20,000 nt of DNA from an uncultured virus (IMG/VR IMGVR_UViG_3300042445_003239) (Duplodnaviria > Heunggongvirae > Uroviricota > Caudoviricetes), in IMG/VR virus record IMGVR_UViG_3300042445_003239. One strand, written 5' to 3'. The position numbers and the translations under genes are program-made. Position 1 is the first letter of the stretch; each line of letters opens with the position of its first letter. Positions 4,181-15,496 of this stretch are shown here, piece by piece. The notes beneath the pieces are model-generated. The model worked only from the letters and a program-made list of their open reading frames with translations, searched no databases and was not told where the DNA came from.

Positions 4181-4615
4181 ATGAGTCCATGGACGTATCA
4201 AAATAACACTTTTACTAAAGAAGATGCCGAACTAAAAATTGCAGAAGGCTGCATTGGATTCATCTATGAAATTACAGATGTATTAAACGGCAAAAAGTAT
4301 ATCGGCAAAAAGCTGTTAATTACAAAAAGAAAACGTCCACCGCTGAAAGGCCAAAAACGAAAGCGTATTGACATTATTCAAAGTGATTGGGCAAAGTACT
4401 ATGGCAGCAGTGAAAAAGTTAAGCTTTTGGTTGATGAACGTCCAGCTGATTTTCGGCGTGAAATACTTGAGTTTTGTAAAGCAAAAGGTGAACTATCTTA
4501 TATTGAAGCAAAGTGGCAATTCACTAAAGAAGTGCTATTGACAGATGATTATTACAATGAGTTTATCGGTGTGAAAATACACAGCGCTCATGTGAAAAAT
4601 TTATGGAAAAAATGA
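4181..4615 (+). CDS. denA: GIY-YIG endonuclease, T4 endonuclease II (DenA)-like
   Basis: GFIY...KKYIGKK, W-KYYGSS, FRREIL, E, YYN motifs; 144 aa single domain. Confidence 0.8.
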   Translation: MSPWTYQNNTFTKEDAELKIAEGCIGFIYEITDVLNGKKYIGKKLLITKRKRPPLKGQKRKRIDIIQSDWAKYYGSSEKVKLLVDERPADFRREILEFCKAKGELSYIEAKWQFTKEVLLTDDYYNEFIGVKIHSAHVKNLWKK

Positions 4616-7954: not shown

Positions 7955-8002
7955 TTTACTTTCATAAAAAAGTATATATAATATCTCAACAATATATAAA
8001 TA
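7955..8002 (+). promoter_or_regulatory. second sigma70-like promoter plus late promoter for the RNA locus
   Basis: TTTACT 7955-7960, 16-nt spacer, TATAAT 7977-7982; TATAAATA 7995-8002. Confidence 0.65.
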
Positions 8003-8132
8003 GTAATTCAAGGTTCATGACGAGGGAGTACCTGAAACGCCCAAGCGAGCACAAATAGGTGTCATCATAAACGAGGTTTTTATGAGTAGTCAATAATTTT
8101 ACTCGTTTGCATATATCGTATAATATGCACGC

Positions 8133-8175
8133 CATCAGGGTGTCGGTCGCCTGATGTAAAAGAAAAGACCGAACA
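8133..8175 (+). ncRNA. H-type pseudoknot RNA, copy 1
   Basis: S1 CATCAGG/CCTGATG; S2 TCGGTC/GACCGA; A-rich loop TAAAAGAAAA; TATAAT at 8119-8124 just upstream. Confidence 0.7.
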
Positions 8176-8241
8176 TTTTCAACAGTATGGGTAGTCCCAT
8201 CGGAGCATGACTGTGATACCGTTACAGTTAAGATTTTCAAT

Positions 8242-8316
8242 CGCGGGGTAGAGTAGAGGTAACTCAACGGTCTCATAAGCCGTGCACGTGGGTTCGAATC
8301 CCACCCGCCGCAACCA
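8242..8316 (+). tRNA. trnfM: tRNA-fMet(CAT), atypical
   Basis: C1:A72 mismatch, CTCATAA loop, TTCGAAT T-loop, CCA; one extra G in the acceptor 3' strand. Confidence 0.8.
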
Positions 8317-8428
8317 ATTTAATCTCAATATTCATATTGAGAGAATACCAACAGCATGCCAGTGTATCGTGCGTTGATAGTGGCTTACAAACCCATGTTG
8401 CAGTAGAAGGTTCTGCGTACACTCCCAT

Positions 8429-8456
8429 TTCAACTCCCCCGTGGCAGTACTAATTT
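8429..8456 (+). repeat. orphan copy of the 3' end of tRNA-Glu
   Basis: TTCAACTCCCCCGTGGCAGTACTAATTT vs TTCAACTCCCCGTGGCAGTACCAATTT at 8870-8896. Confidence 0.75.
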
Positions 8457-8508
8457 CGTTACTATTGTAACTGTGGTTAACGCTGCAGCTATTACGAATG
8501 CAATGATT

Positions 8509-8551
8509 ATTCAGAATTTCGGTGATCTGAATCCAAAGAAAACACCGTACA
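8509..8551 (+). ncRNA. H-type pseudoknot RNA, copy 2
   Basis: S1 ATTCAGA/TCTGAAT; S2 CGGTG/CACCG; loop CCAAAGAAAA; same geometry as copy 1. Confidence 0.7.
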
Positions 8552-8562
8552 ATTTTTCAATC

Positions 8563-8641
8563 CTCCGTGTACGCAAACTGGCAAAGCGACTGCCTTCAAG
8601 GGGCGGTGATATTGTGAGTTCGACTCTCACCTAGGAGACCA
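8563..8641 (+). tRNA. trnL: tRNA-Leu(CAA), short variable region, two acceptor mismatches
   Basis: CTGCC-TTCAAGG-GGCGG anticodon arm; GTGAG-TTCGACT-CTCAC T-arm; ACCA. Confidence 0.7.
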
Positions 8642-8667
8642 ATTTTGAGAGCTGCAACTCTCGTTAA

Positions 8668-8807
8668 GTGAACATCGAGACTCTGAGAAGAGAGGCTTGC
8701 AGGCCTTGAGTCAAAGATGGCAATTATTGTGTAATGGCTTGCGCGCCCGTCGTGAAAACGGGAGGGACGGTTCGATTCCGTATTTTGCTTCGCTTGATGT
8801 TCATCTA
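8668..8807 (+). ncRNA. structured RNA with a nested degenerate tRNA-like domain
   Basis: Outer stem GTGAACATCGAG/CTTGATGTTCAT; inner CCCGT-CGTGAAA-ACGGG arm and ACGG-TTCGATT-CCGT T-arm. Confidence 0.55.
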
Positions 8808-8817
8808 ATTTTCCAAC

Positions 8818-8892
8818 GCTGCCATCGTCTATCGGTTAGGACAAATGGTTTTCAACCATTAGAGCGGGGTTCAACTCCCCGTGGCAGTACCA
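8818..8892 (+). tRNA. trnE: tRNA-Glu(TTC)
   Basis: GCTGCCA/TGGCAGT acceptor, AATGG-TTTTCAA-CCATT, CCA. Confidence 0.93.
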
Positions 8893-8902
8893 ATTTTCAA
8901 AA

Positions 8903-8991
8903 GTACGTGAGGCTACTGTTGGTTGTGTGGCGGCAGACTGTAACCCTGCTCATCAGAAACATCGTTGGTTCGATTCCAACCGCGTACACCA
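8903..8991 (+). tRNA. trnY: tRNA-Tyr(GTA)
   Basis: GTACGTG/CGCGTAC acceptor, CTGTAAC loop, long variable region, ACCA. Confidence 0.85.
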
Positions 8992-8997
8992 TTTTAT

Positions 8998-9073
8998 TCC
9001 GAGGTTAGCATATGTAGTAATGTCCTGCCTTGTGACGGCAGCGAATATGGTGCAAGTCCATGACCGCGGACCA
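8998..9073 (+). tRNA. trnH: tRNA-His(GTG) with U-1:A73
   Basis: CTGCC-TTGTGAC-GGCAG; T-loop TGCAAGT; ACCA. Confidence 0.8.
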
Positions 9074-9075
9074 TT

Positions 9076-9172
9076 TTTGAGCAGCGAGAACTCGGACTAA
9101 GTAAAAGGAGGTTCAACTCCTCCATTCTCTGGCTAGTCACTATCAGGATGACAACCTGACTGCTCAAATCCA
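9076..9172 (+). ncRNA. rearranged tRNA-like RNA
   Basis: 9-bp terminal stem plus TCCA; T-arm GGAGG-TTCAACT-CCTCC lies 5' of an anticodon-like hairpin TCAGG-ATGACAA-CCTGA. Confidence 0.6.
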
Positions 9173-9183
9173 CTTTCTTTAAT

Positions 9184-9260
9184 GCCTCCTTAGCTCAATT
9201 GGCAGTAGCAGCTCATTTGTAATGAGCAGGTTATCCGTTCAAGTCGGATAGGAGGCTCCA
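9184..9260 (+). tRNA. trnT: tRNA-Thr(TGT)
   Basis: GCCTCCT/AGGAGGC, GCTCA-TTTGTAA-TGAGC, TCCA. Confidence 0.93.
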
Positions 9261-9265
9261 ATTTC

Positions 9266-9430
9266 AATTATGATACTATTCGGTGAGTTAGGTGCATATG
9301 TGTATGCATACAGGCTTGAAATTCCGTGCTGAAGATAATGTCAGTGTATCATAATTAAAGATCGCTACGATCTTCAGTAGCTAGCTTCAGTCCTAAGTGA
9401 GTCGTAGGCCGCAATGCTATGGACATACCA
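9266..9430 (+). ncRNA. putative structured RNA(s)
   Basis: 11-bp stem AATTATGATAC/GTATCATAATT, several internal hairpins, ends ACCA before the spacer. Confidence 0.45.
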
Positions 9431-9439
9431 ATTTTCAAC

Positions 9440-9515
9440 TCCCGAGTAGCTCAATGGTAGATGCGCTGAGCTGTTAACTCAGATGTTGCACGTTCGAGTC
9501 GTGCCTCGGGAGCCA
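9440..9515 (+). tRNA. trnN: tRNA-Asn(GTT)
   Basis: TCCCGAG/CTCGGGA, CTGAG-CTGTTAA-CTCAG, GCCA. Confidence 0.95.
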
Positions 9516-9524
9516 TTTTCAAAA

Positions 9525-9598
9525 GCGCTATAAGTGTTACGGTAGCACGTGATCCTTCCAAGTTCGAGGCGTGGGTTCGACTCCCACATGGCGTACCA
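9525..9598 (+). tRNA. trnG: tRNA-Gly(TCC)
   Basis: GCGCTAT/ATGGCGT, CTTCCAA loop with a weak anticodon stem, A73 instead of the bacterial U73. Confidence 0.8.
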
Positions 9599-9602
9599 AT
9601 TT

Positions 9603-9766
9603 TGACACAGACGGTCTAGCTGATGTAATTTACGAGACCATAAGAGAGGGTGACTGCGAGTGCGGATTTACGGAGTAAGTCTTTTAGACCGAAACAAAAC
9701 AATATCTCGACAAGACCGGATACTTGAACAAATTTCTGCCTCTCAAACTTCAGCGTGTGTCATCCA
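9603..9766 (+). ncRNA. putative multiply pseudoknotted RNA with an acceptor-like end
   Basis: TGACACA/TGTGTCA terminal stem followed by TCCA; four crossing complementary pairs inside. Confidence 0.5.
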
Positions 9767-9770
9767 ATTT

Positions 9771-9847
9771 ACTAGACTTCGTCTAAGCGTTAAGGACCTC
9801 ACGACAGTACGTGAGAAGTGTAGGCTTCAATCTACAGTCTAGTTCTA
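9771..9847 (+). ncRNA. tRNA-shaped cloverleaf with non-canonical loops
   Basis: ACTAGAC/GTCTAGT, GTCT/GGAC, CTCACG/CGTGAG and TGTAG/CTACA all pair; no canonical anticodon loop or T-loop; ends TCTA. Confidence 0.6.
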
Positions 9848-9866
9848 ATTTACCTAAACGGGCTCA

Positions 9867-9950
9867 TGAAACATAGGGACGGGCTCTTCCACCAGCGTGA
9901 TGGCTGAAGTCTTCGGACGAAGAGTATGTATATCTTGCAGAAGTGTTTCA
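9867..9950 (+). ncRNA. putative three-way-junction RNA with a cUUCGg tetraloop
   Basis: TGAAACAT/GTGTTTCA, GCTCTTC/GAAGAGT, CAGC/GCTG, GTC-TTCG-GAC. Confidence 0.5.
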
Positions 9951-9963
9951 ACTTAATTTTTAT

Positions 9964-10041
9964 CAGAGGGTGGTGGAGCGGTCTAACACACCTAGTTTGG
10001 AACTAGGAACAACGCAGGTTCAAATCCTGCCTCTCTGACCA
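9964..10041 (+). tRNA. trnP: tRNA-Pro(TGG)
   Basis: CAGAGGG/CTCTCTG, CCTAG-TTTGGAA-CTAGG, ACCA. Confidence 0.92.
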
Positions 10042-10049
10042 TTTTCAAT

Positions 10050-10128
10050 GGTTGTGTGAATTTCGACTTGGTAAGAAGTAGATTTCATAAGTCTAAGTAT
10101 ATAGGTTCAAATCCTATCACAACCACCA
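10050..10128 (+). tRNA. tRNA with CAT anticodon (Met or Ile2), irregular D-arm
   Basis: GGTTGTG/CACAACC, TAGAT-TTCATAA-GTCTA, ATAGG-TTCAAAT-CCTAT, ACCA. Confidence 0.8.
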
Positions 10129-10137
10129 AACTTCAAA

Positions 10138-10210
10138 GGGGATGTAGCTCAATTGGTAGAGCGCTTGCCTTGCACGCAGGATGTTGCAGATTCGAGTTCT
10201 GTCATCTCCA
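10138..10210 (+). tRNA. trnA: tRNA-Ala(TGC), CCA not encoded
   Basis: GGGGATG/CATCTCC with G3:U70, CTTGCAC loop. Confidence 0.93.
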
Positions 10211-10220
10211 CTTTTTTAAT

Positions 10221-10297
10221 ACGACTATAGCTCAGATGGTCAGAGCACAGCTTTGATAAAGCTGGGGTCGAAGGTTCAAATCCTTCTAGTCGTACCA
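10221..10297 (+). tRNA. trnI: tRNA-Ile(GAT)
   Basis: ACGACTA/TAGTCGT, CAGCT-TTGATAA-AGCTG, ACCA. Confidence 0.95.
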
Positions 10298-10301
10298 TAA
10301 C

Positions 10302-10376
10302 GGACGTTAAGCTTTAATAGTGAAGCACATGGCTTTTAACCATGAGAACTGGGAGCATTACCCAGAACGTCTACCA
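10302..10376 (+). tRNA. trnK: tRNA-Lys(TTT), variant T-loop
   Basis: GGACGTT/AACGTCT, CATGG-CTTTTAA-CCATG, T-loop AGCATTA, ACCA. Confidence 0.9.
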
Positions 10377-10383
10377 ACTTTCT

Positions 10384-10458
10384 CCACACTTAGCTGAGAT
10401 GGATTAGCACAAGACTGAAAATCTTGAGAGGACCGATCGTTACGGTCAGTGTGGACCA
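10384..10458 (+). tRNA. trnF: tRNA-Phe(GAA), variant T-loop
   Basis: CCACACT/AGTGTGG, CAAGA-CTGAAAA-TCTTG, T-loop ATCGTTA, ACCA. Confidence 0.9.
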
Positions 10459-10462
10459 TAAT

Positions 10463-10542
10463 GCTCCTGTAGCTCAGTCGTGGTCAGAGCACCCGCCTTA
10501 TAAGTGGGAGGTCATGGGTTCAATCCCCCATCAGGAGTACCA
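10463..10542 (+). tRNA. trnI: tRNA-Ile(TAT)
   Basis: GCTCCTG/CAGGAGT, CCCGC-CTTATAA-GTGGG, 8-nt T-loop, ACCA. Confidence 0.85.
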
Positions 10543-10552
10543 ATTTTCAAAT

Positions 10553-10629
10553 ACGCCTATAGCTTAGCGTTCCAAAGCAATCCACTCATAATGGATAGAT
10601 CCTCGGTTAGAATCCGAGTGGGCGTACCA
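10553..10629 (+). tRNA. tRNA with CAT anticodon (Met or Ile2)
   Basis: ACGCCTA/TGGGCGT, ATCCA-CTCATAA-TGGAT, T-loop TTAGAAT, ACCA. Confidence 0.85.
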
Positions 10630-10650
10630 TTTTATTATAAATATGATTAT

Positions 10651-10726
10651 GCGGAGGCATGTCCCAAGGCTGGCGAACGAGACTCCAAATCTTGTTGGGT
10701 GAGTTCGATTCTCACTCTCCGTGCCA
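10651..10726 (+). tRNA. trnW: tRNA-Trp(CCA)
   Basis: GCGGAGG/TCTCCGT, CGAGA-CTCCAAA-TCTTG, G73 then CCA; TATAAATA at 10636-10643 upstream. Confidence 0.88.
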
Positions 10727-10760
10727 AAAATCAATTATTATAAATAAACATATAACTATT

Positions 10761-11453
10761 ATGAAAGACGGTCTAATTAACATCGCAAAGAATTTCTTGC
10801 TATCTGAAGCAGCAGTGAAAGAATATACACTCAATGACGCTTCAACACTCTCTGACTTTGAGAGTGAAACTGAAATCATTACGCATCTTGTGAAGGATCC
10901 AAAGATTAAAGCTGCTACTGGCGGTTCAAAAAATCTTTACTTTGACGGTTCCGAACTTGTATATAAAGACAAGACTGTAAAGGGTGGATTAATTGATAAA
11001 GATGGTTTTAGTGCTAAGGTTAAACTTGGTGATCTTAAGAAAGCTATTTTGGCAATGCCTGGGCTACACGAAGCAAGTGGCCAATCTGATCCAAATATTA
11101 CAGTTTGGACTAAAAAGGGACCACACAATTATGATAGCTTTTTAGCTGCAAATGAAGATCGTATTGGCGAGCCAATGATTGACGGCGGTCTTAAAGCAAA
11201 TAATAAAGATGCTGAAGCAGTAAACGGTCAGCCAGTTAATGACATGATCTATTGTGGTTCTGGTTGCGTAGTTTATAAAGATGGTGCAAAGAGATTTGTC
11301 AAGTTACCATCTGGTCTCATAAACACAGGTGATGGCAGTACGCCTTGGTCAAAATATTCTTCATTTAGTTCTGAAGGTGTGCTAATTAAAGCAGATGATA
11401 ACAATAAATTCAAAGATATTGCTAAAGCAGTACAAGTTGCCGCAAAATTTTAA
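10761..11453 (+). CDS. hypothetical late protein, putative internal head protein
   Basis: Start reassigned to ATG 10761 because the longer frame overlaps tRNA-Trp; TATAAATA at 10739-10746; LLSE/A and LHE/A gp21-like sites. Confidence 0.75.
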   Translation: MKDGLINIAKNFLLSEAAVKEYTLNDASTLSDFESETEIITHLVKDPKIKAATGGSKNLYFDGSELVYKDKTVKGGLIDKDGFSAKVKLGDLKKAILAMPGLHEASGQSDPNITVWTKKGPHNYDSFLAANEDRIGEPMIDGGLKANNKDAEAVNGQPVNDMIYCGSGCVVYKDGAKRFVKLPSGLINTGDGSTPWSKYSSFSSEGVLIKADDNNKFKDIAKAVQVAAKF

Positions 11454-11478
11454 ATCTTAACAAGAATAACTTTAACGG

Positions 11479-11508
11479 AAAGAGGCTGCATCTTGCAGTC
11501 TTTTTTTT
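11479..11508 (+). terminator. intrinsic terminator
   Basis: AGAGGCTGCA-TCT-TGCAGTCTTT hairpin with a T8 tail. Confidence 0.85.
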
Positions 11509-11510
11509 AT

Positions 11511-11569
11511 GCACTCTTAGCTCAGCTGGATCAGAGCACACGGCTACGAACCGTGAGGTCCGGGGTTCG
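11511..11569 (+). pseudogene. trnR: 5' part of split tRNA-Arg(ACG)
   Basis: GCACTCT acceptor 5' strand, D-arm, CACGG-CTACGAA-CCGTG and CGGGG-TTCG, then an abrupt break. Confidence 0.88.
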
Positions 11570-11597
11570 TAAAGTTCACATTTGTATAAATACATTT

Positions 11598-12371
11598 ATG
11601 AACTACCAACGTATTTACGATAATCTAATTTCATATCGACAAAATAATCCGGCAACTGGATATACTGAAAAGCACCATATCTTGATGAAATCAATGGGCG
11701 GATCTGATGATACTTCTAATCTAGTAGTTTTAACTGGAAGAGAACATTGGATCGCCCACATCCTTCTTTATAAGATTCATAAGAATAGTCAAACAATTCA
11801 TGCATGCCATATGATGGCGATGCGATGTGAAGAGCGCAGTATATCCTATATTAAGAATTCTCGTCTGTATGAAGAAATTCGAAAACATCACTCTAAATTG
11901 GCATCAAAACGTATGAAAATTTCTCAAAGTGGTGAGTGCAATTCACAATATGGAACTCGTTGGATGTGCAATATTGAATTACAAGAAAATAAAAAAATAT
12001 TAAAAGAAGACAAAATACCAGAAGGATGGATTTTAGGAAGAAATAAGTGGAAAAATATAGAAATAATTTTTACATGTGTTATATGTAATTGTACTTTTTT
12101 AAAGCTTAAATGTTCTAAGACATATAAAACGTGCTCATCTGAATGTCTTCATTTATTAAAAATAAAAAATAGAAAAGGTAAAACACTAGATAAAAAAACT
12201 AGAAAAAAACTTTCTGATTCGGCTAAAATTCGAATGCGTAAACAAATTGATTCTGGTAATATGAAATTTTCAAGTGTTGATACTGTTTGGATTAACAATG
12301 GAACAAAATCTGCACGTATTGAAAAAAATGAATTACCTCCTGATGGATGGAAATTTGGAAGACATAAATAA
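11598..12371 (+). CDS. HNH homing endonuclease (MobE-like) with zinc finger and NUMOD-like DNA-binding modules
   Basis: MNYQRIYD...TEKHHI--K-MGGSDD-SNLV-LT-REH-IAH; CVIC...CSSEC; WINNG/GW-LGR repeats; TATAAATA at 11585-11592; start reassigned to ATG 11598. Confidence 0.92.
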   Translation: MNYQRIYDNLISYRQNNPATGYTEKHHILMKSMGGSDDTSNLVVLTGREHWIAHILLYKIHKNSQTIHACHMMAMRCEERSISYIKNSRLYEEIRKHHSKLASKRMKISQSGECNSQYGTRWMCNIELQENKKILKEDKIPEGWILGRNKWKNIEIIFTCVICNCTFLKLKCSKTYKTCSSECLHLLKIKNRKGKTLDKKTRKKLSDSAKIRMRKQIDSGNMKFSSVDTVWINNGTKSARIEKNELPPDGWKFGRHK

Positions 12372-12376
12372 AAAAA

Positions 12377-12451
12377 GGCCTGTTGGTCCAATGGATAAGA
12401 CGAGAGTTTACGAAACTCCAAATTGAGGTTCGATTCCTCAACAGGCCACCA
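12377..12451 (+). tRNA. trnR: tRNA-Arg(ACG), cassette-borne replacement copy
   Basis: GGCCTGT/ACAGGCC, D-loop GGA (A20), GAGT-TTACGAA-ACTC, TGAGG-TTCGATT-CCTCA, ACCA. Confidence 0.9.
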
Positions 12452-12505
12452 TTTTGTATTATATAATTTAAAATAAATGTACATAATATATAATAAACTG
12501 ATGAA

Positions 12506-12519
12506 TTGAGAGTGCACCA
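12506..12519 (+). pseudogene. trnR: 3' remnant of split tRNA-Arg(ACG)
   Basis: AGAGTGC (12509-12515) is the exact complement of the GCACTCT that opens the split tRNA, followed by ACCA and the usual TTTT spacer. Confidence 0.82.
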
Positions 12520-12523
12520 TTTT

Positions 12524-12607
12524 TGCGAGAGGGTGTCTAAACCGCTTGGCCCGTCGGTTGAACTCGCATGTCAATATCTCCAAAGTGTTGATGTTAACGG
12601 GCCTTCA
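12524..12607 (+). ncRNA. pseudoknotted RNA displaying a Trp-type anticodon loop
   Basis: TGCGAG/CTCGCA, AACCG/CGGTT, crossing GGCCCGT/ACGGGCC; hairpin closing CTCCAAA. Confidence 0.55.
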
Positions 12608-12619
12608 AATTTTTATAAT

Positions 12620-12693
12620 GGGGGATTAGTTCAAAAGTAGAACGATTGCTTTACACGCAATATACGAGGGAGCGTTACCTTCATCCCTTACCA
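12620..12693 (+). tRNA. trnV: tRNA-Val(TAC), variant T-loop
   Basis: GGGGGAT/ATCCCTT, ATTGC-TTTACAC-GCAAT, T-loop AGCGTTA, ACCA. Confidence 0.9.
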
Positions 12694-12696
12694 TAC

Positions 12697-12786
12697 GGAG
12701 ATATGACAGAGTGGTAATGTAGCTGTTTGCTAAACAGTAGTCAACCTTGATCGGTTGCGCAGGTTCAAATCCTGCTGTCTCCGCCA
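12697..12786 (+). tRNA. trnS: tRNA-Ser(GCT)
   Basis: GGAGATA/TGTCTCC, TTGCTAA loop, long variable arm, GCCA. Confidence 0.95.
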
Positions 12787-12791
12787 TTTTT

Positions 12792-12866
12792 GTTGCGTAA
12801 GCCAAATGGTTAGGCGCGAGATTGCAAATCTCGTCTTGGTGTGTTCGATTCACACACGCAACTCCA
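12792..12866 (+). tRNA. trnC: tRNA-Cys(GCA)
   Basis: GTTGCGT/ACGCAAC, CGAGA-TTGCAAA-TCTCG, U73 then CCA. Confidence 0.93.
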
Positions 12867-12868
12867 AT

Positions 12869-12942
12869 TGCCCATTAGCATAAAGGTAATGCACACGGCT
12901 TTGACCCGTGAGAAGTTGGTTCGATACCAGCATGGGCTACCA
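12869..12942 (+). tRNA. trnQ: tRNA-Gln(TTG)
   Basis: U1:U72 mismatch, CACGG-CTTTGAC-CCGTG, ACCA. Confidence 0.92.
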
Positions 12943-12968
12943 ATTTTTATAAATAGATAAATAACAAT

Positions 12969-13259
12969 ATGACTGAAAACTTTACAAACATTAAAAACGA
13001 TCCGCTTGTAGCCGCCGCCGCAAAAATCATAGGCAGTCAATTGCATGAAGCTGATTCACGTATAGCAAAAACACCAGCTGCAGTTAAATTACTATCTGGA
13101 ATTACAAAGCTTGACGCCAAGGAATTTGAAGATTTGTTATATGGTCTTGAATATATGACTCAATGGAATGGCCAACGCGACGGAGATGATGATTATATTG
13201 AAACTGCGCTATTTCTTAAAAAAGCAGCAGAACGTTTTTCTAAAAGACCAAATAAATAA
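12969..13259 (+). CDS. hypothetical late protein, putative internal head protein (paralogue A)
   Basis: TATAAATA at 12948-12955; leader MTENFTNIKNDPLVAAAAKII then QLHE/A. Confidence 0.8.
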   Translation: MTENFTNIKNDPLVAAAAKIIGSQLHEADSRIAKTPAAVKLLSGITKLDAKEFEDLLYGLEYMTQWNGQRDGDDDYIETALFLKKAAERFSKRPNK

Positions 13260-13267
13260 ATACAGAT

Positions 13268-13831
13268 ATGAAAGAAAACTTCACAAACATTAAAAACGAT
13301 CCGCTTATAGCTGCGGCCACAAAGATCTTAACAGGATGCACTCAATTAGATGAAACAGTTGAGCTCCAAGAAATGTCCAACACTAAAATTGCAAAAGACA
13401 TTAAGAAGGGCGACTCTTTTAAAGCAAATCTAAAAATCCCAGGAAAAGGTGTAGACATCTCAAAAGCATATACTGTTATTGCGACAGATGACGCAATGGA
13501 TTCAAAAACTCATCCTGGGAAACTGGTAAACATACGTGTAAAAGCTGGAAACTATACAACCGTAGTTCCTTTTGAAAAAAATCAGAAAGTAGATCTTGTT
13601 GAAGAAACAATTGATGAAGCTCTTAAAACTCCAACATATCCACTTGTTCGTAAAATAATGGCAGCTGCAGAAGATATAGATGAAGATGAATTGGAAGAAT
13701 TGTTTTTCACACTATCAAACTATATGATTTATGGCGGGTTTGGTGGAATGGGATTTGATGATCGTCTGCATGATGAAGTTGGAGCACATCTTTTCCGCGC
13801 GGCAAAAGTTTGGAAAAATCGAAATAATTAA
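13268..13831 (+). CDS. hypothetical late protein, putative internal head protein (paralogue B)
   Basis: Same leader MKENFTNIKNDPLIAAATKIL; several (L/I)xE sites; C-terminal helical domain resembles paralogue A. Confidence 0.8.
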   Translation: MKENFTNIKNDPLIAAATKILTGCTQLDETVELQEMSNTKIAKDIKKGDSFKANLKIPGKGVDISKAYTVIATDDAMDSKTHPGKLVNIRVKAGNYTTVVPFEKNQKVDLVEETIDEALKTPTYPLVRKIMAAAEDIDEDELEELFFTLSNYMIYGGFGGMGFDDRLHDEVGAHLFRAAKVWKNRNN

Positions 13832-13838
13832 TTTTAAT

Positions 13839-14158
13839 GGGGATGTCATGGTTTCGACATGACATGAGAGATTATATTGCAACACACGGGTGACTCCCTT
13901 CGTCAAAAAACTAAACGGCAAAAATACACTTGCTCTCGCTGCTTAAGTGAGTCGAATGACATGACTCCTATATTGTCATTCGCACGGCATAGGATAGTTG
14001 ATACCACGAACGGTATCTATTTGTACAGCATTGTGAATAACGCTGTCGTGACACAACGATAAGTGTCTAAGAGTCTCGTCTGAATAAATGAGAATAAGTT
14101 GTAGATTGTATAATCGCACACGTCATGGACACGGGTTCAACTCCCGTCGTCTCCACCA
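13839..14158 (+). ncRNA. ssrA: tmRNA; tag (A)GKNTLALAA at 13917-13946
   Basis: GGGGATG/CGTCTCC-ACCA with G3:U70, GGTTTCGAC 5' motif, GGAC-ACGGG-TTCAACT-CCCGT 3' end, tag ORF ending LAA-stop. Confidence 0.95.
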
Positions 14159-14160
14159 AT

Positions 14161-14237
14161 GCACAGGTGACGGAATTGGTTTACGTACTTGCCTTAGAAG
14201 CAAGGTTTTGTGGGTTCGAGTCCCACCCTGTGTACCA
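14161..14237 (+). tRNA. trnL: tRNA-Leu(TAG), short variable loop
   Basis: GCACAGG/CCTGTGT, CTTGC-CTTAGAA-GCAAG, 5-nt variable loop, ACCA. Confidence 0.9.
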
Positions 14238-14246
14238 AAATTTTAT

Positions 14247-14335
14247 GGAAGTAGTCCGGCTGGTCGAGGACACTGTCTTGAAAACAGCTGGGGCCTATAA
14301 AGCCCTCGGGGGTTCGAGTCCCTCTGCTTCCGCCA
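14247..14335 (+). tRNA. trnS: tRNA-Ser(TGA)
   Basis: GGAAGTA/TGCTTCC, CTTGAAA loop, GGGC/GCCC variable arm, GCCA. Confidence 0.9.
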
Positions 14336-14351
14336 TTTAAGTTGCATCTAT

Positions 14352-14359
14352 TATAAATA
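14352..14359 (+). promoter_or_regulatory. T4-type late promoter
   Basis: TATAAATA upstream of the 14396 ORF. Confidence 0.7.
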
Positions 14360-14395
14360 GATTATTACGAGTAAAGTTATTGGCTACAAAATCAC

Positions 14396-15496
14396 ATGAA
14401 ATCATTTAAACAATATATTCTTGAAGGCGGAAATTTAATGTTGGGCGACCAAGGTGCAGATCGCATTGACCTAACAAAGATTAACCGTGATAGTGTAACG
14501 GTGCAAATTGACCGCACACTAGATGCAGTTAACAAAGCATACAAGAAAAAGTATGGACTACCATTATGGAGTGGCGAACTCTTTAAGAGCAAGGAGTTTC
14601 TTAGCGGCAGCGCATTCCACTTTTTTAACCGCGCAATTCCTACAGCCGAATTTACTAAGTATAAGAATACAGTAGGCGATGTAGATACTCAGGTTGATAA
14701 GATACAAGATGAAAACCTTGGCGAGTTTCTTAAAGCCATAACTGGTAAAACTTTTGGTGATGCTTCACTCATTGGATTTAAGAAAAGCGCGGGGCAATAT
14801 ATTACGCTTTGGGCTTTCCCAGAGTTTGGCATTAACATTCAAGTAGATATGGAACTTGTTGACTTTGCTTATGGCAAACCAACAGCATGGAGCATGTTCT
14901 CGCATTCATCTGCATGGAATGATATTACAGCAGGTATTAAAGGTGTGTTTCATAAATACATTATGAGAGCAGCATCTGCAAAAACACTGCGTGATATTAT
15001 CATTCTTAAAGGTAAGAAAGAAACACCTACGAAAATTAAAGCATCTGATCTTGCATTTAGTGTACAGCATGGATTGCGCACCAAAATAGCACCAGTCCTA
15101 GATGGCGTAGGTAAACACATGATGCAGGATGGATTATATGTCTATCGTGAAATACCAACAAGTGAATCAACATATATTACGGATCTTAAAGTTATCTTTA
15201 AAGTACTCTTTGAGCGTACGCCATCAGATGCGGATATGAAGATGATGGATTCGTTTATTGGCGCAGCGGAACTCATTAAGAAATATATTGCACCAGCAGA
15301 ACAAACACGATTAATCAATGCATTTGCAAATATATTATTTGAAAAAGGCGCACAAGGATTATATCGTGGTGATGCTGAACGAGATAATGCCGAAAAGATG
15401 GCAGCATTCTTAAAACTTACCGAAATCATTGGAGCACAATATGACCGTGCTGCTATTGATGATATGCGTGCAGAATATTACAAAGGATACAAATAA
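14396..15496 (+). CDS. pol-beta-superfamily nucleotidyltransferase with a capsid-targeting-like leader
   Basis: hGS (LSGSA), GDVD, third Asp in IQVDM; N-terminus MKSFKQYILE. Confidence 0.75.
   Translation: MKSFKQYILEGGNLMLGDQGADRIDLTKINRDSVTVQIDRTLDAVNKAYKKKYGLPLWSGELFKSKEFLSGSAFHFFNRAIPTAEFTKYKNTVGDVDTQVDKIQDENLGEFLKAITGKTFGDASLIGFKKSAGQYITLWAFPEFGINIQVDMELVDFAYGKPTAWSMFSHSSAWNDITAGIKGVFHKYIMRAASAKTLRDIIILKGKKETPTKIKASDLAFSVQHGLRTKIAPVLDGVGKHMMQDGLYVYREIPTSESTYITDLKVIFKVLFERTPSDADMKMMDSFIGAAELIKKYIAPAEQTRLINAFANILFEKGAQGLYRGDAERDNAEKMAAFLKLTEIIGAQYDRAAIDDMRAEYYKGYK

Follow-up and report, generated by a model that had tools for sequence, protein, structure and literature searches.

Homing endonucleases usually do their host no harm, as their genes lie either in intergenic positions or within self-splicing introns or inteins. 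The free-standing ones cut a conserved site in genomes that lack them and are copied in with flanking DNA during repair, the donor being protected by sequence differences at the site (PMC2988022; PMC2790892). Here we describe a locus in a stretch of 20,000 nucleotides (nt), hereafter the window, from the uncultured virus IMGVR_UViG_3300042445_003239 of the IMG/VR collection, in which a transfer RNA (tRNA) gene, tRNA-Arg(ACG), is broken in its T-loop by an insert carrying a Mob-like HNH endonuclease gene and, immediately after it, a complete and differently spelled tRNA-Arg(ACG). On the comparisons set out below, the insert is likely to be a homing cassette composed of the HNH gene and an immune tRNA allele, which would replace sensitive alleles of the same tRNA.

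Among known systems, SegB of phages T4 and T6 comes closest. SegB recognises the T-loop sequence GGTTCRANTCC and cuts the 3′ parts of tRNA genes; in T4 × T2L crosses its inheritance is nearly 100%, with loss of the T2L tRNA markers, and it drives the inheritance of the flanking tRNA genes, its own stop codon lying at the start, or processing site, of a tRNA-Arg (PMC2330249). Genes for SegB are widely linked to tRNA genes across phages (PMC13096335). The window cassette resembles this system in having a free-standing endonuclease gene within a phage tRNA array, with an open reading frame (ORF) that ends at the 5′ end of a tRNA. SegB, however, is a GIY-YIG enzyme encoded between tRNA genes, whereas the cassette encodes an HNH enzyme and lies inside one; SegB cuts many tRNA genes with relaxed specificity, whereas each HNH cassette is paired with one anticodon; and the accessible accounts of SegB contain neither a dead stump nor a same-anticodon replacement (PMC2330249; PMC13096335).

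Other systems share part of the arrangement. The MobA–E endonucleases of T4, of which MobE is the studied case, have a homologous N-terminal HNH region, are free-standing, carry a late-promoter-like box directly upstream and practise intronless homing with co-conversion of the flanks (PMC2790892; PMC2988022), but their genes lie between protein-coding genes and none is given in or beside a tRNA gene in the endonuclease table of PMC2988022. The HNH enzymes F-TflI, F-TflII and F-TflIV of T5 are found among phage tRNA genes, and it has been suggested that processing of the tRNAs in the transcript restricts their expression; the passage on them does not speak of a stump with a replacement tRNA (PMC2330249). 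Group I introns that home in tRNA genes are also selfish, endonuclease-bearing inserts inside a tRNA gene whose function is kept, but they sit in the anticodon loop and are spliced (PMC3984707), whereas the window cassette has no ribozyme and function would be kept through a second gene copy. Full-text literature searches found no description of the stump–HNH–tRNA layout, subscription-only works such as the T5 F-Tfl papers being outside their view. Three features are new relative to the literature seen: the position of the insert within a tRNA gene, the dead stump, and, over many anticodons and phage groups, a partner tRNA that strictly shares the anticodon but is spelled differently.

A tRNA-Arg(ACG) gene interrupted by an HNH gene and a second tRNA

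The two parts of the resident tRNA-Arg(ACG) gene are separated by an insert of 934 bases (11570–12503), with one G ambiguous at the right edge, as the final base of the tail, G12503, may equally be G57 of the resident tRNA (Table 1). The 5′ stump contains the acceptor 5′ strand, the D arm, the anticodon arm with a CTACGAA loop, the variable region, the 5′ strand of the T-stem and TTCG of the T-loop; it is not called by ARAGORN, and its Rfam score of 25.1 bits is below the gathering score of 29. The 3′ remnant is made of T-loop bases 58–60 (AAT), T-stem bases 64–65 (TG), the acceptor 3′ strand AGAGTGC, which is complementary to GCACTCT of the stump, the discriminator A and CCA. Judged by its sequence, the resident gene is dead, reduced to a 5′ stump and a 16-nt 3′ scrap. 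The insert consists of a TATAAATA box, the HNH gene, a complete foreign tRNA-Arg(ACG) and a 52-base tail, the HNH ORF being free-standing and filling it except for 28 nt, the tRNA and the tail; it lies in no self-splicing intron or intein. The cassette tRNA reads as a cloverleaf in which the acceptor, anticodon and T stems are paired and the anticodon loop has 7 nt (ARAGORN, Rfam), and it is the only intact ACG tRNA found in a tRNA scan of the 43-kb record to which the window belongs.

Table 1 Features of the interrupted tRNA-Arg(ACG) locus (window coordinates)
Feature	Position	Strand	Remarks
Hairpin GGCTGCA-TCT-TGCAGTC, then T8	11484..11508	+	Resident flank, outside the insert; just 5′ of the resident tRNA
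5′ stump of resident tRNA-Arg(ACG), 59 bases	11511..11569	+	About tRNA positions 1–57; ends GGTTCG in the T-loop
Cassette left end and leader, 28 nt	11570..11597	+	TAAAGTTCACATTTG, then TATAAATA (11585–11592), then CATTT, then ATG
Mob-like HNH homing endonuclease gene	11598..12371	+	257 amino acids plus stop; PHROG 655
Complete cassette tRNA-Arg(ACG)	12377..12451	+	5 nt past the HNH stop; ARAGORN; Rfam 54.8 bits (gathering score 29)
AT-rich cassette 3′ tail, 52 bases	12452..12503	+	Missing from the empty allele L009
3′ remnant of resident tRNA, AAT-TG-AGAGTGC-A-CCA, 16 nt	12504..12519	+	By comparison with L009
Resident downstream flank, common with the empty allele	12520..12618	+	93.75% over 112 nt to L009

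An earlier note on this DNA, made from the window alone, had suggested looking for an empty allele, and one is found in the related viral contig L009, where an uninterrupted tRNA-Arg(ACG), called by ARAGORN and reading GCACTCT...AGAGTGC, lies between the same flanks. The upstream hairpin and its T-run are kept (92.7% over 124 nt, the tRNA 5′ part included), and downstream of the intact tRNA the sequence TTTTTGCGAGAGGGTG... is the same as in the window; beyond about 100 nt, L009 and the window diverge on both sides. Comparison with the intact allele, which ends ...GGTTCGAATCCCTGAGAGTGCGCCA, also reveals that CCC (bases 61–63) of the resident T-stem is absent from the window, and these are exactly the few T-arm bases that the earlier note had described as missing. 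The stump, the box, the HNH ORF, the complete ACG tRNA and the 3′ end all lie where that note had put them; the 3′ remnant, placed by it at 12509–12519, does hold the acceptor strand and CCA there but in full begins at 12504 and includes T-loop and T-stem bases. Its statement that the insert brings, with the HNH, a divergent tRNA of the same anticodon also agrees with the comparison: the stump is identical to the L009 tRNA at 58 of 59 bases, whereas the cassette tRNA has 45 of 77 aligned bases in common with the resident allele and differs from it in the acceptor, D, anticodon and T stems.

These figures bear on the possibility of a local duplication, in which SegB-style amplification of a unit of tRNA and endonuclease, followed by partial deletion and decay, would have left the stump and the complete tRNA as old paralogues. 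For SegB itself, a unit of tRNA-Tyr and segB has been documented to amplify in tandem by way of microhomology (PMC13096335). For the window we nevertheless regard such an origin as very unlikely: the stump, matching a working allele in a relative so closely, is undecayed, it agrees with the complete copy at only about 58% of aligned bases, with all four stems different, and the corresponding alleles a and b of the Vibrio phages described below each occur intact and separately in phages without the HNH. As to other alleles in relatives, a contig from the same metagenome as L009 and with ends overlapping it (L006, probably of one genome with L009) has at 915–989 a second tRNA-Arg(ACG) of a third sequence type.

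The cassette tRNA was also sought elsewhere. A 17-mer from its anticodon arm gave only chance matches in protein genes and the same phage, an 18-mer from its D arm gave only the same phage and an unrelated tRNA-Arg(TCT), and blastn of the tRNA and tail against phages found nothing; none of the three found a copy of the 12377 tRNA without the HNH in the window lineage. Megablast of the region against 50,697 phage records gave no match, and blastn against phages returned only N-terminal HNH matches and generic tRNA-Arg matches.

Misassembly, a risk raised by the earlier note, is ruled out at both junctions. Three other IMG/VR contigs, from other samples, are 100% identical to the window over 4,856–8,690 bases spanning both, and both are also crossed by Logan contigs of the sequencing runs X12, X17 and X22, whose bridging pieces show 0 differences (X12, 11300–12080 and 12096–12692, also with 0 differences; X22, 11318–11736 and 12395–12603; X17, 11537–11691 and 12480–12630); in X16, the fourth of the four runs compared, no contig crosses either junction. 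An assembly chimera, or an integrase-type island with the tRNA as attachment (att) site, would find some support in the fact that tRNA genes are classic integration sites and that repeat-rich arrays are hard to assemble. With identical junctions in the additional contigs and independent runs, no integrase, a single ORF in 934 bases and an insert end that, unlike an att site, does not rebuild the disrupted tRNA, both can virtually be dismissed.

That both ends of the resident tRNA are still in the window would also fit an intron or a split tRNA, the tRNA-Arg being rejoined at the RNA level by self-splicing, by protein or by trans assembly. The earlier note had seen no intron core, and indeed no intron family is present among the 38 Rfam matches at E ≤ 1 in window 8000–15000; the space left is only 28 nt before the ORF and 5 nt between the ORF and the inner tRNA. 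Rejoining is highly improbable, since the 3′ remnant lacks three T-stem bases, which would leave any rejoined product without a normal T arm, and since that remnant is wholly absent in most other instances of the layout.

Regarding possible signals at the locus, TATAAATA occurs nine times in the window, always on the + strand, against 2.18 expected, and usually lies 12–14 nt 5′ of an ORF start, only 5 nt separating it from the ATG in the cassette; it is probably the T4-type late promoter box of the window phage. Leaders homologous to that of the window cassette are present in four other loci (L105, L107, L110 and L111). The tail has two sigma-70-like matches, no more than in shuffles. The upstream hairpin was not among the outputs of a simple terminator scan, and the ~100 nt downstream of the locus (12520–12619) have no significant fold (z −0.52).

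The HNH protein matches PHROG 655, “homing endonuclease”, with an E value of 3.8e-42, and in Pfam HNH_5 (E 8.8e-4) and HNH (E 0.011), neither of which reaches its curated cut-off; all its matches in Pfam and PHROG are HNH-type and none is to a GIY-YIG domain. By tblastn it matched 972 phage records, and its first ~150 residues are 39% identical to Mob-type endonucleases encoded by T4-like phages (E 6e-19). There is a weak local match to the McrA HNH, and searches of PDB and NCBIfam gave no informative match. Within the HNH-motif block EKHHILMKSMGGSDDTSNLVVLTGREH, H26, H27, N41 and H50 are invariant in five homologues (alignment A1), the invariant columns reading HH..GG..N..EH. Conservation is limited to the N-terminal ~150 amino acids; the C-terminal part, which contains a Cys cluster and two W..N...P.GW..GR-like repeats, is variable and may be the DNA-binding, target-defining part. 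By sequence, the cassette nuclease is a member of the Mob-like HNH family, an analogue of SegB and not a member of the SegB family. A second HNH homologue in the same record (39% identity) has no tRNA nearby.

Recurrence of the layout across anticodons

The earlier note had proposed looking among HNH homologues for a linked tRNA matching the disrupted flank, and this was found many times. A first search, with the window protein alone, returned 68 loci, three of them self, with tRNAs near seven of the 65 non-self loci. Six of these seven belong to a single lineage (L025–L030), the closest non-self one at 55% identity, in which the first ~57 bases of a tRNA-Val(TAC), ending GGGGGTTTG, are broken at the same spot of the T-loop as in the window. 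After this stump comes a homologous leader, AAAGTTCGCAAATATATAAATAACCTT followed by ATG, and the HNH stop abuts a complete, different tRNA-Val(TAC). No empty allele of this lineage was found, and when the metagenome collection was searched with a degenerate pattern made from the cassette leader, this lineage alone came back (4 loci).

A second, profile-based search with alignment A1 gave 80 loci, two of them self, and at least one tRNA lies within 1.5 kb in 36 of the 80. Counts were made on 31 loci, self and exact duplicates (L106, L108, L112, L124, L125, L163 and L164) being dropped and the window and three GenBank phages (L096–L098) being added. An ARAGORN tRNA starts no more than 10 nt after the HNH stop, or overlaps it, in 19 of the 31. 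In 11 of these 19, a free upstream hairpin has the same anticodon as that tRNA (ACG, CGT, TAC twice, GTA, TCC twice, TGT, TGC, TTG and GTT), “free” meaning outside called tRNAs, with a 5-bp stem and a 7-nt loop with T33 and R37, located 45–66 nt before the ATG. Shuffled pairings give a mean of 0.95 matches and reached 11 in 0 of 100,000. Parsing by hand adds five fits, L096 (TGT), L119 (CTT), L120 (CTA suppressor), L105 (TCT) and L123 (TTC), which carry less weight because they were made with the downstream anticodon known. The L096 stump ends just past the anticodon loop, and two of the five downstream tRNAs are detected by Rfam only, that of L105 at 34.3 bits and with an odd shape, that of L123 at 29.5 bits and 48 nt past the HNH stop.

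The break falls in the T-loop in the window, L105, L107, L109, L110, L111, L113, L114, L117 and L123, and close to the T-loop in L115; L096 and L118 are broken at the anticodon arm or just past it. The acceptor stems of stump and complete tRNA differ in every parsed case, so in none of them is the complete copy simply a fusion of the old 3′ half with a new 5′ half. The left junctions are without consistent microhomology: there is a second T-loop-like pentamer in L105 and L107, a 13-nt repeat in L110 and a 3-nt loss in the window. In L105 (1470–1485, GTTCG TA AGTTCG) and L107 (1468–1485, GCTCG TA AGCTCG) the pentamer is repeated two bases on, and its copies covary.

It could be argued that the HNH is a passenger or an inactive relic, the block having entered by illegitimate recombination in a shuffled tRNA array and the same-anticodon pairs reflecting selection against isoacceptor loss. 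Phage tRNA arrays are mosaic, as the divergence of L009 and the window beyond their shared ~100 nt illustrates, and the Pfam HNH score of the protein is below its cut-off. However, the same T-loop break and a homologous leader occur across different tRNAs and phages, the ORF is intact with its catalytic HH..N..H columns invariant in A1, and the anticodon match is far above chance; we consider this explanation unlikely. In T4 the phage tRNA genes are dispensable in the laboratory, so purifying selection alone is unlikely to give so strong an anticodon match. If the unit is a homing cassette, the same-anticodon rule would come from target specificity rather than from selection alone.

Several further observations concern individual members of this set. 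The L105 tRNA (2152–2229) has its TCT anticodon arm right after the acceptor strand and a D-arm-like stretch next, and is rearranged or defective. Suppressor-type tRNAs (CTA, TTA) are found in phage arrays at L105 3197–3271, L120 1461–1534 and L141 442–516, and the cassette tRNA of L120 is itself a CTA tRNA. In L119 (53–107), in L097 (2466–2503) and upstream of the ATG in L133, L138 and L098, there is a hairpin whose 5′ arm is the anticodon-loop remnant of the stump and whose 3′ arm lies over the HNH ribosome-binding region or start codon, with a TATAAATA-like box in the loop; such hairpins resemble the translational control of T4 endonuclease genes (PMC2330249). In L122 an HNH homologue (37% identity) adjoins two Intron_gpI matches (275–468 and 2202–2464; 60.9 and 75.9 bits), so the nuclease family also occurs in a classical intron-associated setting. 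Finally, a phage tRNA array in L129 contains Pistol-ribozyme matches at 249–309, 484–555 and 2162–2240 (39.8, 34.4 and 42.5 bits; gathering score 34.5), one of which begins right at the stop of the HNH homologue, where a tRNA stands in other loci.

Filled and empty alleles and the proposed homing of HNH–tRNA units

The HNH is polymorphic for presence and absence at one locus in three lineages: the window and L009, L110 with L184 and L185, and the Vibrio phage SRILMA with pv27 and phiKT1024. In L110 the stump, ...GAGTGGATCG, is followed by the leader AAAGTTTCACATTTGTATAAATAC, an HNH gene (61% identity), a tRNA-Tyr(GTA), six bases and GAGTGGATCGAAACCACACGGCCGCACCA, and the insert is flanked by a 13-nt direct repeat of the target. 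The resident element is Tyr-like, with a GTA loop, a T-arm-like hairpin and an ACCA end, and in L184 and L185 it is uninterrupted between the same flanks.

The third set includes cultured phages. In the Vibrio phages VB_VaC_SRILMA and TDDLMA, GCCCGATTAGC...CTTGTAA is followed by TC TATAAATAG and then by the HNH gene (47% identity), whose last codons and stop lie within the first 10 nt of a complete tRNA-Thr(TGT). The SRILMA stump corresponds to bases 1–38 of one allele, a, with 37 of 39 matches to the first 39 bases of the intact tRNA-Thr of pv27, whereas its complete tRNA-Thr is another allele, b, with 70 of 75 matches to the intact tRNA-Thr of phiKT1024. Both pv27, with intact allele a, and phiKT1024, with intact allele b, lack the HNH at this same locus, and the downstream flank of SRILMA is of the phiKT1024 type. 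On these alignments, SRILMA appears to have arisen when allele a was cut and the break repaired from a donor carrying the HNH plus allele b. The occurrence of allele b in phiKT1024 would also allow the stump to be foreign and the complete tRNA resident; this was rejected as the only reading, as pv27 has an intact allele a at the locus.

In the mechanism that we propose, the mobile unit would be the ~934 bases lodged in the T-loop of the resident tRNA-Arg(ACG), after its 59th base (about tRNA position 57), and the cassette tRNA would now supply the ACG isoacceptor. The HNH would reside directly upstream of a tRNA allele that it leaves intact. Its targets in a mixed infection would be sensitive alleles of that tRNA, cut within the tRNA body or close to it (at the T-loop for the window clade, just past the anticodon loop for the Vibrio clade), and repair of the break would copy the HNH together with its linked allele, the pair travelling as a block. 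Where the left side is joined without resection, the old tRNA would keep its 5′ part, a stump whose end marks the cut. The HNH clade would thus act like SegB, but with a narrower target, the counterparts of one tRNA allele per enzyme. That the HNH makes the cut, the position of the cut, the immunity and function of the cassette tRNA, and spread by homing are what we infer from the sequences compared.

A number of points weigh against this mechanism. Its two central steps, cutting of the resident allele by the HNH and immunity of the cassette tRNA, are drawn from sequence comparison, and the cassette tRNAs have ordinary T-loops (TTCGATT in four), so the T-loop alone cannot separate sensitive from immune alleles. 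The automated same-anticodon test is failed by 8 of the 19 loci with an abutting tRNA. Three of the eight, L128, L131 and L132, lack a stump, and the tRNA upstream of their HNH is complete and has a different anticodon; two more, L133 and L097 (Rhizobium phage LG08), with a tRNA-Asn downstream, have only a ACTGTTAA-type anticodon-loop-like 9-mer inside a hairpin, in which the 9-mer is one arm and the opposite arm covers the start codon. The 3′ remnant, searched for as the reverse complement of the stump acceptor with at most one mismatch within 400 nt, is kept only in the window and L110, all other matches being starts of other tRNAs or noise. The right junctions of these two differ, a 3-nt deletion in the window and a 13-nt direct repeat in L110, and give no uniform picture of the joining chemistry; in addition, neither ARAGORN nor Rfam recognises a tRNA in the resident element of the L110 pair.

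Two further points concern the cassette tRNA and the lake population. The allele b of phiKT1024 is a cassette-type tRNA without the HNH, which fits co-conversion or HNH loss; the tRNA is thus not exclusive to the cassette and is better seen as the home flank of the endonuclease, dragged along by co-conversion, than as purpose-built cargo. A relative with the 12377 tRNA at this position but no HNH was one of the contrary cases named by the earlier note; none was found in the window lineage, and phiKT1024 is a comparable case in the Vibrio group. The contigs of the four runs are without an empty-allele joint and give no sign of ongoing homing in the lake population; since contigs drop rare variants, this result does not bear on rare empty alleles. 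Taken together, the interpretation of the earlier note, a selfish cassette whose insertion would destroy its own recognition site and whose cleavage-resistant tRNA would offset the cost, is partly supported, and a homing cassette of HNH and tRNA allele is the reading that we prefer.

Genomic setting and meaning for phage tRNA arrays

The source record is an IMG/VR virus of 43,270 bases, estimated to be 24% complete, of which the window is a part; it comes from lake water and represents a large phage, and all 24 of the 24 sequencing runs containing the stretch are lake or freshwater metagenomes, no RNA run being listed for it. Genes for ribonucleotide reductase, exonucleases and a helicase lie nearby, and the window holds a long tRNA array with a transfer-messenger RNA (tmRNA) gene (ARAGORN, Rfam). 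The latter lies within the array, at 13839–14158 (Rfam RF00023, 93.8 bits), with the tag GKNTLALAA according to ARAGORN; tmRNA genes are also present in several related loci, for example in L138 (cyano_tmRNA match, 121.6 bits). Three tRNA-like genes missed by ARAGORN are detected by Rfam at 12620–12690, 10302–10373 and 10055–10122 (49.7, 44.4 and 36.3 bits), and in the one at 12620, read by eye, the anticodon loop is that of TAC (Val) and the T-loop is unusual, AGCGTTA as against TTCRANT. Between the ribonucleotide reductase and exonuclease genes, an ORF of 144 amino acids (4181–4612) matches PHROG 447, “NAD synthetase” (E 5e-33), and also two homing-endonuclease PHROGs (E 7e-18 and 3e-10), and may be a small mobile nuclease.

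Breaking the target gene and bringing a working, differently spelled copy of it would be a third route to harmlessness for a homing endonuclease. Many of the “pseudo-tRNA” fragments in phage annotations could then be explained as scars marking endonuclease cut sites. The three-allele set of SRILMA, pv27 and phiKT1024 makes the idea directly testable by crosses, and nucleases that read the bodies of tRNA genes could serve as sequence-specific tools. A broader view, which we put forward tentatively and hold to be somewhat less probable than its opposite, is that HNH–tRNA units are a distinct, self-contained mobile class, each nuclease lineage being tuned to the body of one tRNA species and inserting into unrelated genomes without flanking homology, with a resistant isoacceptor always carried and decoding capacity never lost. 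If true, this would mean rapid turnover of tRNA alleles in phages and possibly the spread of tRNA variants that escape host anticodon nucleases. That the layout recurs with at least 13 anticodons points to a general force by which the highly mosaic tRNA arrays of large phages are shaped.

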